Shown here in pieces: positions 31,303 to 64,000 of a DNA stretch of 64,000 nt (its first letter is position 1; the number at the start of each line of letters is the position of its first letter). Both the position numbers and the translations under genes were made by a program. Origin of the DNA: Escherichia coli (GTDB lineage: Bacteria; Pseudomonadota; Gammaproteobacteria; Enterobacterales; Enterobacteriaceae). Location: the NCBI RefSeq assembly GCF_050320075.1, contig NZ_CP190018.1; one strand, given 5' to 3'. The notes beneath the pieces were generated by a model. It saw only the letters and a list, made by a program, of their open reading frames with translations, was not told the origin of the DNA and did no database searches.

Positions 31303-31409
31303 AACTTGTTACCTCGGTCTGTTACCGTTGAGGTAATAATTATGCGTATATGGTTTGATGTCAATAGATATGAGTTAAAAAAATTACCCGTTAGGTAATC
31401 GAATAGGCA

Positions 31410-40847: not shown

Positions 40848-40924
40848 TGGCGTGGCATGCAGGATTCGAACCTGCGACCAACCGCTTAGAAGGCGGTTGC
40901 TCTGTCCAACTGAGCTAATGCCAC
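40848..40924 (-). tRNA. tRNA-Arg (anticodon UCU), phage-encoded
   Basis: Manual cloverleaf: acceptor GTGGCAT/ATGCCAC, D-arm GCTC/GAGC, anticodon stem ACCGC/GCGGT, loop CTTCTAA (UCU), T-arm GCAGG-TTCGAAT-CCTGC, discriminator G, CCA encoded; closely resembles host argU. Confidence 0.85.
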
Positions 40925-60250: not shown

Positions 60251-60431
60251 GCAATAACTGTATATTTATACAGTATCAAATAATTTGTTTGCTATCCAGC
60301 ACGTTTTGCAAATTACCTGAAAGGTAATATCTATTCATATTCACAGTCTTTCTATCCATATATGGTTTTTTGGGTAATAGAATAACCAGATATGCGGCGC
60401 AACGGGTGCTGCGACTATCTGGAGATTTAAC

Positions 60432-63275: not shown

Positions 63276-63366
63276 GGGATGGTAATAATTATCCGTATAT
63301 GGTTTATTGTGTATGATGAACTCACCAACTAAGGGGGTTCTTTATGCACAATAAACGGTGGTCATC

Positions 63367-63771
63367 ATGTCGCACTCGTTAACTACGGAGTCGCTAAATC
63401 AGGGGCTTAGCCTGAGCGCGCTGGTTTCCGTATTGGCAGGTGTGCCGCCAGAAGTGGCTTTAGGGGCGCTGGCCGGTGCGGTAATTTTTGTTACCTCTGC
63501 GGTCGAGTACCCCATAAAGCGGCGTTTACTTCTGGCGTTCCTCAGCTTCTTCTGCGGCCTTCTTTTTTATAAACCAGCAGCATCAATTCTTATCGGCATC
63601 GCCAGCCTGATCCCTACTATCACGCAGGACTCTTTTGAAAAAGGGATTGTTTTCTCTGCTGGCGCATTCGTGTCAGCAATTGTTGCTGTGCGTATTGGTA
63701 TATGGCTCTACCACCGTTCCGATAATCCACGCGAGTTAATTCCGGGGAGAAAAGACGATGGTAACGCATGA
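63367..63771 (+). CDS. small membrane protein (possible holin or other moron)
   Basis: ORF 63358-63771; ATG 63367; three or four hydrophobic helices and a charged C-terminus. Confidence 0.45.
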   Translation: MSHSLTTESLNQGLSLSALVSVLAGVPPEVALGALAGAVIFVTSAVEYPIKRRLLLAFLSFFCGLLFYKPAASILIGIASLIPTITQDSFEKGIVFSAGAFVSAIVAVRIGIWLYHRSDNPRELIPGRKDDGNA

Positions 63772-64000
63772 GTTTTTTTTGCTTATCACCAATGCAGTTA
63801 TTTGTACTGGCATAGCAATTCGCGTTGTCACATTCCGGCGTAACGGATCTCAATATCGAAGATTGGGGGGATGGCTTGCTTATTTCCTGATTGTCGCTGC
63901 GGCAAGTATTCCTGTTCGTGTCGTCTATGCAATCTGGTTACGCACGCCAATGGCTGTGGATTTATCCGAGGTCATTATCAATGCTGTCATGCTTGCTGCG
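63768..64000 (+). CDS. membrane protein, N-terminal fragment (continues beyond window)
   Basis: Manual translation MSFFLLITNAVICTGIAIRVVTFRRNGSQYRRLGGWLAYFLIVAA...; ATG overlaps the upstream stop. Confidence 0.35.

Follow-up and report, generated by a model that had tools for sequence, protein, structure and literature searches.

The right-hand end of the window, the 64,000-nucleotide stretch of Escherichia coli DNA analysed here, carries two consecutive small genes, ORF1 and ORF2, which follow a tailspike gene and the second of which is cut by the end of the stretch, its stop codon falling at the equivalent of position 64066 (Table 1). The window matches the chromosome of E. coli YZLc1-3 (NZ_CP123240.1) with a single mismatch, 62,800 of the 62,801 compared bases being identical, and its final 801 bases align at 100% identity with two complete E. 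coli chromosomes. The part of ORF2 past position 64000 and every gene downstream of it are accordingly described from the identical public YZLc1-3 record and not from the DNA of the window, the full 102-aa sequence of ORF2 being that of L001 12559-12867 in this record. Close DNA relatives of the region of ORF1 and ORF2 were found in 529 of 5,426 complete E. coli genomes.

Table 1. Features of the locus, in the order of the chromosome; positions are those of the window.
Feature	Position	Strand	Basis or remark
Host genes hscA to guaA	1-26104		NZ_CP123240.1 record
Integrase gene	26297		opens a ~39-kb prophage with epsilon15 gene order
Tailspike / tail fibre gene, 947 aa	60432..63275	+	phrog_1171 tail spike, E 6.5e-188; Peptidase_S74 at residues 817-876; RefSeq WP_199219454.1 'tail fiber domain-containing protein'
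GGTAATA-N9-ATATGGTT box	63281..63304	+	exact 24-nt copies at 31332 and 32491, in the immunity region; 0 expected by chance
Leader hairpin, 5' untranslated region of the lysis cassette	63298..63360	+	core stem 63302-63356
ORF1, 134 aa, first lysis-cassette gene	63367..63771	+	PF16931, phrog_198, epsilon15 gp23 homology; RefSeq WP_142966451.1 'putative holin'
ORF2, 102 codons, 81 inside the window	63758..64000	+	PF05449, phrog_217, epsilon15 gp24 homology; RefSeq 'phage holin family protein'
GH19 endolysin, 209 aa	past the window end, 11-nt overlap with ORF2	same strand	YZLc1-3 record
i-spanin, DUF2514 protein, 160 aa	4-nt overlap with the GH19 gene	same strand	YZLc1-3 record
o-spanin ORF, 91 codons	embedded in the DUF2514 gene, +1 frame		lipobox LALAG/C
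yfgI, host gene	after the DUF2514 gene, beyond the prophage end		YZLc1-3 record

The sequence-only reading had described two consecutive genes for small membrane proteins after the tailspike, with products made mostly of hydrophobic helices, and both descriptions are confirmed, the former by the common plus strand and by Pfam matches above threshold, the latter by a Kyte-Doolittle scan and by AlphaFold2 models. ORF1 matches PF16931 (Phage_holin_8) over model positions 1-109 of 121 with 47.0 bits (gathering cut-off 26.4; E 3.5e-12), and the 81 residues of ORF2 inside the window match PF05449 (Phage_holin_3_7, also DUF754) with 68.2 bits (cut-off 25.4; E 6.4e-19). Since both exceed the Pfam gathering thresholds, ORF1 and ORF2 are real genes and not chance reading frames. 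The PHROGs collection places them in phrog_198 (E 5.8e-40) and phrog_217 (E 3.6e-25) respectively, both named 'holin' in the category 'lysis/holin', and they are 84% and 79% identical to gp23 and gp24 of phage epsilon15. No other family of Pfam or PHROGs is matched by either protein, and Pfam gives no match to the families of lambda S or P2 Y. The NCBIfam models yielded nothing informative for the four cassette proteins, the sole match being to the cell-division protein FtsL, far below cut-off, and sequence searches of the PDB found no solved relative of ORF1 or ORF2. The feature is an ordinary one and already annotated, as the RefSeq names of the two products show.

The ATG of ORF1 is preceded by a GGTGG Shine-Dalgarno sequence at 63357-63361, and that of ORF2, at 63758, by GGGGAG, so placed that the two reading frames overlap by 14 nt. 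A later start for ORF2, in the ATGA at 63768, was considered and rejected: the T run at 63773-63780 counts 8 T, which brings that frame to a stop after 15 codons. The Kyte-Doolittle scan gives ORF1 three to four hydrophobic segments, and its AlphaFold2 model (pLDDT 66) has helices at residues 6-24, 28-44, 50-66, 68-79 and 90-119, with a kink at K69-P70 in the stretch 50-79; residues 6-24 and 68-79 can be read in more than one way, which puts the number of membrane helices at three or four. In this model the KRR loop at 51-53 and the mixed-charge C terminus presumably lie in the cytoplasm. ORF2 shows three hydrophobic segments (about 6-24, 37-59 and 66-83) and is modelled with helices at 2-25, 35-61, 69-84 and 89-100 (pLDDT 72); the two models are wholly helical and of modest confidence. 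Its first loop is strongly basic (RRNGSQYRR) and should be cytoplasmic by the positive-inside rule; its C-terminal tail, which is basic as well, opens with an RGN motif conserved in the family (G and N without exception, R in at least 90%) and forms a short amphipathic helix in the AlphaFold2 model. The predicted build of three helices and a basic tail fits the pattern of a class I holin with the N terminus out and the C terminus in, an orientation taken from the positive-inside rule alone. Neither gene has a dual-start motif: the GTG at 63358, upstream of the ORF1 start, would give a product beginning MVIM with no basic residue in the extension, and ORF2 begins MVTHEFF, with no second start.

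The 209-aa product of the gene that follows ORF2 matches PF00182 (GH19; E 8.3e-9) and the SPN1S endolysin of known structure (PDB 4OK7; E 3e-113), and no segment of it reaches the hydrophobicity threshold in the Kyte-Doolittle scan. An endolysin that has neither a signal nor a membrane segment must stay in the cytoplasm until a holin acts. The protein encoded next matches DUF2514 (E 3.5e-42) and has a single N-terminal transmembrane segment; together with the lipoprotein frame embedded in its gene it is, as predicted from these matches and the lipobox, an Rz/Rz1-type embedded spanin pair, in agreement with the assignment of the spanins of the epsilon15 group to the Bcep176 embedded-spanin family (PMC6139136). 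The cassette thus reads ORF1, ORF2, GH19 endolysin, and i-spanin with embedded o-spanin, in overlapping frames, and it combines the features by which lysis cassettes are recognised in phages of Gram-negative hosts, namely closely packed membrane genes on one strand, a muralytic enzyme that carries no export signal and a spanin pair. Over the part equivalent to the window, and in the rest of the annotated prophage, the YZLc1-3 RefSeq record lists no second lysis cassette. A protein with an SLT domain was considered as a candidate endolysin and rejected, for it sits among virion genes beside a core protein of the T7 gp14 family, a context from which it is probably a virion component.

We propose, with a probability of about nine in ten, that the prophage is an epsilon15-like one (Uetakevirus) integrated between guaA and yfgI, and that ORF1 and ORF2 are the first two genes of its lysis cassette and jointly form its holin module. 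The holin/antiholin option that had been raised from the sequence finds support in the two holin families and in the GH19 endolysin and Rz/Rz1-type spanins placed directly after them. The endolysin gene that was to be looked for just past the window is present in the YZLc1-3 record, and two further points agree with the same option: no other lysis cassette is annotated for the window, in line with what had been stated, and the downstream genes encode an endolysin and spanins rather than the glycosyltransferases that would have spoken for a conversion module. The description of these genes as 'displaced' does not hold, since the succession of tailspike, lysis cassette and attP/int is the native epsilon15-like order, which after integration leaves the cassette at the right end of the prophage.

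The same first reading had treated conversion or exclusion functions as equally possible, that is, it allowed that ORF1 and ORF2 might be morons for lysogenic conversion or superinfection exclusion, acting on the O-antigen or by exclusion and unconnected with lysis. Their position directly after the tailspike gene is indeed the site of the conversion genes in epsilon15-like phages, and as small membrane proteins they resemble the polymerase inhibitor gp22 of epsilon15. This parity is not borne out, and we consider such a role very improbable. Neither protein matches a transferase or an O-antigen enzyme in Pfam, or any defence family among the PADLOC models, and the endolysin and spanin genes come next on the same strand in overlapping frames. 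Homologues of ORF1 and ORF2 also precede endolysins where no tailspike lies close by, as in P2-like phages and in lambdoid phages, in the latter downstream of Q. Moreover, the relatives carry their conversion genes in addition to the pair, in the space that separates it from the tailspike: the O-antigen ligase-family gp21 and the inhibitor gp22 in epsilon15, oac in phiV10, an O-antigen acetylase in Tyrion and an O-acetyltransferase in TL-2011b, those of epsilon15, phiV10 and Tyrion lying on the opposite strand. The slot that holds them, whose left boundary is the tailspike gene, spans 1.0-1.9 kb in these four phages as against 91 bp here, where it contains the leader only and is empty of conversion genes, as it likewise is in strain TCM3e1. 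The window holds the lysis genes of a prophage, cut by its edge, and no hidden conversion or exclusion genes at ORF1 and ORF2.

The short interval between the tailspike gene and ORF1 carries a half-site and a ATATGGTT box, both of which had been noticed from the sequence and are borne out by exact copies elsewhere in the prophage (Table 1); over 30 nt, the stretch at 63281 is 90% identical to 31332-31361. The half-site belongs to a dispersed palindrome, TTACC-N5-GGTAA, for which 15 sites with at most one mismatch were counted against 1.0 expected, 13 of the 15 inside the prophage, and of which only the right half is present at 63281. In an alignment with five relatives, conservation begins at the ATATGGTT box and the half-site is variable; overall the box is conserved in six relatives and the GGTAA half-site in three of the six. 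In the epsilon15 record a repressor-binding site is entered, as an annotation only, at the corresponding place ahead of the tailspike gene. The ATATGGTT box forms the 5' foot of the leader hairpin, whose 3' base (63358-63360) falls within the Shine-Dalgarno sequence of ORF1. The 106-nt region comprising this hairpin and a small one upstream of it folds with -38.7 kcal/mol (z = -6.4), and none of 200 shuffled sequences was as stable. All of epsilon15, phiV10, TL-2011b, Tyrion and TCM3e1 retain the hairpin, its changes among them being one-sided and pair-preserving, with no compensatory pairs; on an alignment of this kind, such single changes should be read as proof neither for nor against selection on the structure. 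No Rfam family matches the hairpin, and the homologous stretch in the GenBank record of epsilon15 is annotated 'RNaseIII, mRNA processing'. A consensus scan of the 91-bp gap between the tailspike gene and ORF1 found neither a sigma-70-like promoter nor a terminator, so that read-through from the tailspike gene is possible; two terminator-like matches inside ORF1 are at chance level. It is plausible that the leader hairpin tunes the expression of the cassette, for instance through RNase III processing of the kind annotated in epsilon15.

The association of the two families extends well beyond this prophage. Phage records matched by tblastn numbered 218 with ORF2 and 37 with ORF1, and 15 annotated phage loci beyond epsilon15 were picked solely by similarity to ORF2 and spread along the tblastn ranking. 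They came from lambdoid phages (yong2, mEp390, Rac-SA53, Klebsiella phage 1 LV-2017), a P22-like phage (Brookers), N4-like phages (Pylas, FSL SP-076), Casjensviridae (KPN N137, MA12, UF_RH7), Yersinia phage vB_YpM_41, P2-like phages (RSA1, Mana, Shewanella M16-3) and D3-like phages (PMG1, BR313c). At all 17 loci, these 15 together with epsilon15 and our own record, an ORF of the ORF1 family lies immediately upstream of an ORF of the ORF2 family on the same strand; the profiles of the pair were built from seven pairs, and 11 of the loci are independent of them. The endolysins after the pair are annotated in the sampled records as GH19, lysozyme, M15 peptidase or peptidoglycan-binding enzyme, the type having been checked for our own GH19 enzyme and taken from the record annotation at the other loci. 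By these annotations the pair precedes endolysins of differing types, as fits a former of non-specific holes rather than a partner specific to one enzyme. The idea that the two families are paralogues was rejected, the two being not detectably related (hhalign probability 1.2%). As judged from these comparisons, the pair of Phage_holin_8 and DUF754 is a conserved module, already annotated and common to many phage types.

A profile search with the ORF1 family recovered 541 clusters at 50% identity among 1.84 billion representatives, one of which, P0203 (E 1.7e-27), is a 124-aa protein of Pseudomonas aeruginosa found on hundreds of contigs. Its gene is preceded on these contigs by alaS, lysC, csrA (rsmA), a divergent LexA-like repressor (HTH_3 and Peptidase_S24, 237-239 aa) and a 176-aa gene; this PF16931 gene is then followed by a 91-aa PF05449 gene, two more genes, a DUF4124 gene and mgtE. 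The established PAO1 numbers are PA0905 for rsmA and PA0913 for mgtE. The gene numbers in the literature are PA0906 for alpR, PA0908 for alpB, PA0909 for alpC and PA0911 for alpE. The neighbourhood of P0203 and the PAO1 gene numbers (PA0903-PA0913) together identify the locus as the alpRABCDE self-lysis locus. By profile comparison, AlpB is a member of PF16931 (E 6e-45) and AlpC of PF05449 (E 5.6e-30), the families of ORF1 and ORF2, and ORF1 is predicted as an inner-membrane protein of the same Phage_holin_8 family as AlpB. The kinship is visible at the level of profiles only, pairwise BLASTP of ORF1 against AlpB giving E 3.1, and it emerged solely from the profile search of cluster representatives and the contig context; a search with the homologue from Pseudomonas phage PMG1 did not reach AlpB, and a profile search of a set of 5.8 billion proteins (alignment A1) had only close enterobacterial relatives among the matches listed.

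In the Alp system, as in the present cassette, a PF16931 gene precedes a PF05449 gene in overlapping frames, and among the members of both families it is for AlpB alone that genetic data point to a holin function. When alpB and hol are both deleted, endolysin-dependent explosive lysis is lost as fully as when the endolysin itself is missing, and either AlpB or Hol suffices for it (Hynen et al., PMC8131026). The microcolony defect of a single alpB mutant is restored by plasmid-borne alpB, and AlpB acts by releasing Lys, the endolysin of the pyocin cluster (PMC8131026); elsewhere alpB and alpC have been termed 'putative holin and anti-holin' (PMC7969949). There are also clear differences. The Alp locus, a chromosomal remnant, encodes neither an endolysin nor a spanin, its product AlpD has a match in a phage neck-terminator family, and the repressor AlpR and the antiterminator AlpA govern the system. 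ORF1 and ORF2 sit in a complete prophage with its own immunity region, and they are for that reason better regarded as relatives of the Alp module than as members of the Alp system. The pair is thus common to many phage types and to the self-lysis pathway of P. aeruginosa.

The holin-endolysin-spanin pathway is an established one. Following it, we hypothesise that ORF1 and ORF2 would collect in the inner membrane, without harm to the cell, while the late genes of the lytic cycle are expressed and that, at a set time or threshold, they would open large non-specific holes and allow the GH19 endolysin to reach the murein, after which the spanins would fuse or disrupt the outer membrane. In this process the two proteins may work together as a fixed pair, in which one makes the hole and its partner sets the timing or assists. 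On the division of labour within this widespread two-protein module databases and papers disagree, and the answer bears on thousands of annotations. Literature searches on the holins of epsilon15, SPN1S and phiV10, and with the Pfam names, returned endolysin work or statements at the level of annotation only.

From the genetics of AlpB in P. aeruginosa, we lean slightly towards ORF1 as the indispensable hole-forming partner and ORF2 (DUF754) as its antiholin or co-subunit. ORF1 is favoured because the loss of an antiholin should advance lysis, whereas the loss of AlpB in a hol-deleted background abolishes it, with AlpC alone being no substitute. Standard phage annotation distributes the roles the other way: ORF2 would be the sole class I holin and ORF1 a separate antiholin, delaying the trigger in the manner of P2 LysA. 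This arrangement draws on the textbook class I build of ORF2, with about 100 aa, three transmembrane helices and a basic C-terminal tail, and on the four transmembrane segments predicted in some relatives of ORF1, as in P2 LysA. The GenBank records of epsilon15, phiV10 and SPN1S also name the ORF2 homologue 'holin' and the ORF1 homologue 'membrane protein', and an antiholin followed by a holin, in place of P2 Y and LysA, was predicted for the pair in P2-like Burkholderia phages (Lynch 2010, PMC3091744; AP3 paper, PMC5247547). The labels that make ORF2 the holin derive, however, by prediction from position and counts of transmembrane segments, and the phenotype of the alpB deletion is the opposite of what is expected on knocking out an antiholin; we regard the annotated roles as possible but rather doubtful.

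It could also be that the hole is a hetero-oligomer of ORF1 and ORF2 and that neither is sufficient alone. Such an obligate two-component holin would be in keeping with the adjacency, order and common strand of the two families at 17 of 17 phage loci and at the P. aeruginosa alp locus, with the overlap of the two frames, which suggests coupled translation, and with the unrelatedness of the families (hhalign 1.2%), by which neither could simply replace the other. Yet a holin served by its own antiholin should be paired just as strictly, and we think the two-component arrangement unlikely. Our gradings of these variants overlap, an indispensable ORF1 being also compatible with a hetero-oligomer. 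With ORF1 still preferred as the hole-former, a more far-reaching proposition can be put forward tentatively, with less chance of being right than wrong: Phage_holin_8 and DUF754 might constitute an obligate two-protein holin in at least seven kinds of Gram-negative phage, in which the upstream protein would be the real hole-former and the annotated 'holin' its regulator, the timing being further set by the leader hairpin, possibly through RNase III.

Among known systems, the closest correspondence is with epsilon15 itself, whose cassette of gp23 (membrane protein), gp24 (holin), gp25 (endolysin) and gp26/gp27 (Rz-like spanins) matches the present one gene for gene. Gene order, sizes and frame overlaps are common to epsilon15, phiV10 (gp27-30a), SPN1S, TL-2011b, Tyrion and the prophage described here, and the epsilon15 group also shares with it the leader hairpin, the GH19 endolysin of the 4OK7 type, the DUF2514 spanin and the site between tailspike and attP/int. 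Besides the empty conversion slot, the present prophage differs from the group in its tailspike, which is of another type, with a Peptidase_S74 C-terminal domain, and in the GGTAA operator half-site upstream of the leader, which is missing in epsilon15 and phiV10. The P2-like Burkholderia and Ralstonia phages KS5, KS14, KL3, AP3, Mana and RSA1 have members of both families side by side, immediately before the genes for an endolysin and Rz/Rz1-type spanins; they differ in belonging to the Peduoviridae, in having an endolysin composed of PG_binding_1 and a muramidase domain, and in being only 28-36% identical to ORF1 and ORF2. With lambda S105/S107 and P2 Y/LysA the likeness would be one of principle, in which a class I three-helix protein times the release of a cytoplasmic endolysin and a second membrane protein exerts control. 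The differences are that a dual-start motif is absent here and that the second protein is encoded by a separate, unrelated gene placed upstream.

The TTACC-N5-GGTAA palindrome is present at 15 sites in the window when up to one mismatch is accepted, as compared with an expected 1.0, and 13 of these are located within the epsilon15-like prophage (stretch with the sites, 26240-60327). We regard them as probable operators for the repressor of the prophage, dispersed across its whole genome. A full operator and another CCATATATGGTTT box are also situated upstream of a second hairpin, which precedes the tailspike gene, in a layout identical to that of the lysis leader, the hairpin before the first lysis gene, ORF1. 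A tRNA-Arg gene is also annotated in the prophage, lying between its terminase region and its portal gene. With regard to E. coli YZLc1-3, the sole base that differs from the window over the 62,801 compared is 55116, which places the source of the window in the lineage of YZLc1-3 or in one almost identical to it; MSB1_8B likewise exhibits 100% identity to the last 801 bases of the window.

Palindrome sites and further features of the prophage, by position in the window
Feature	Position	Strand	Remark
TTACC-N5-GGTAA sites, immunity-region cluster	31322, 31384, 32096, 32144, 32481		
TTACC-N5-GGTAA sites ahead of several late genes	34427, 34489, 38082, 41248, 58878, 59932, 60313		
tRNA-Arg gene	40848-40924	-	annotated in matching RefSeq record
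Second hairpin, GC-rich, CCAGATATGCGGCGCAACGGGTGCTGCGACTATCTGG	60385-60421		directly ahead of the ribosome-binding site of the tailspike gene

The slot between the tailspike gene and the lysis cassette (63276-63366) contains no gene in the prophage of the window, as is also the case in E. coli TCM3e1, whereas it is filled by O-antigen conversion genes in epsilon15 (L002, 4482-6075), phiV10 (L020, 1391-2578), Tyrion (L022, 514-2585) and TL-2011b (L021, 1045-2577). The prophage may thus leave the serotype of its host unconverted.

In P0115, a public protein cluster of 21 member sequences from two contigs, the homologues of ORF1 and of the second lysis gene, ORF2, are fused in frame into a protein of 232 aa (…RELIPGEKTMVTHEFF…), the fusion touching the region where ORF1 and ORF2 overlap in the window (63744-63771). 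The loss of a single nucleotide in the A run directly ahead of the ORF2 start would explain it; this could correspond to a genuine fused variant, or to a sequencing error in the homopolymer. A direct fusion would be awkward given the topologies predicted for both proteins.

AlpB and AlpC, which belong to the respective families of ORF1 and ORF2, are encoded by the self-lysis alp locus of P. aeruginosa (L028, 4735-5740; L024, 5743-10375). Among the other products of this locus, AlpD has a match to PF23961 (E = 5e-15), a family of phage neck/tail terminators, and AlpE has a weak one to a Dit-like tail protein. Downstream of alpC, the gene series continues in some strains into a tail module of myophage type, with sheath, tube and chaperone genes. 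Because of these matches and this continuation, alpBCDE resembles a remnant of a tailocin or prophage rather than a holin-spanin cassette.
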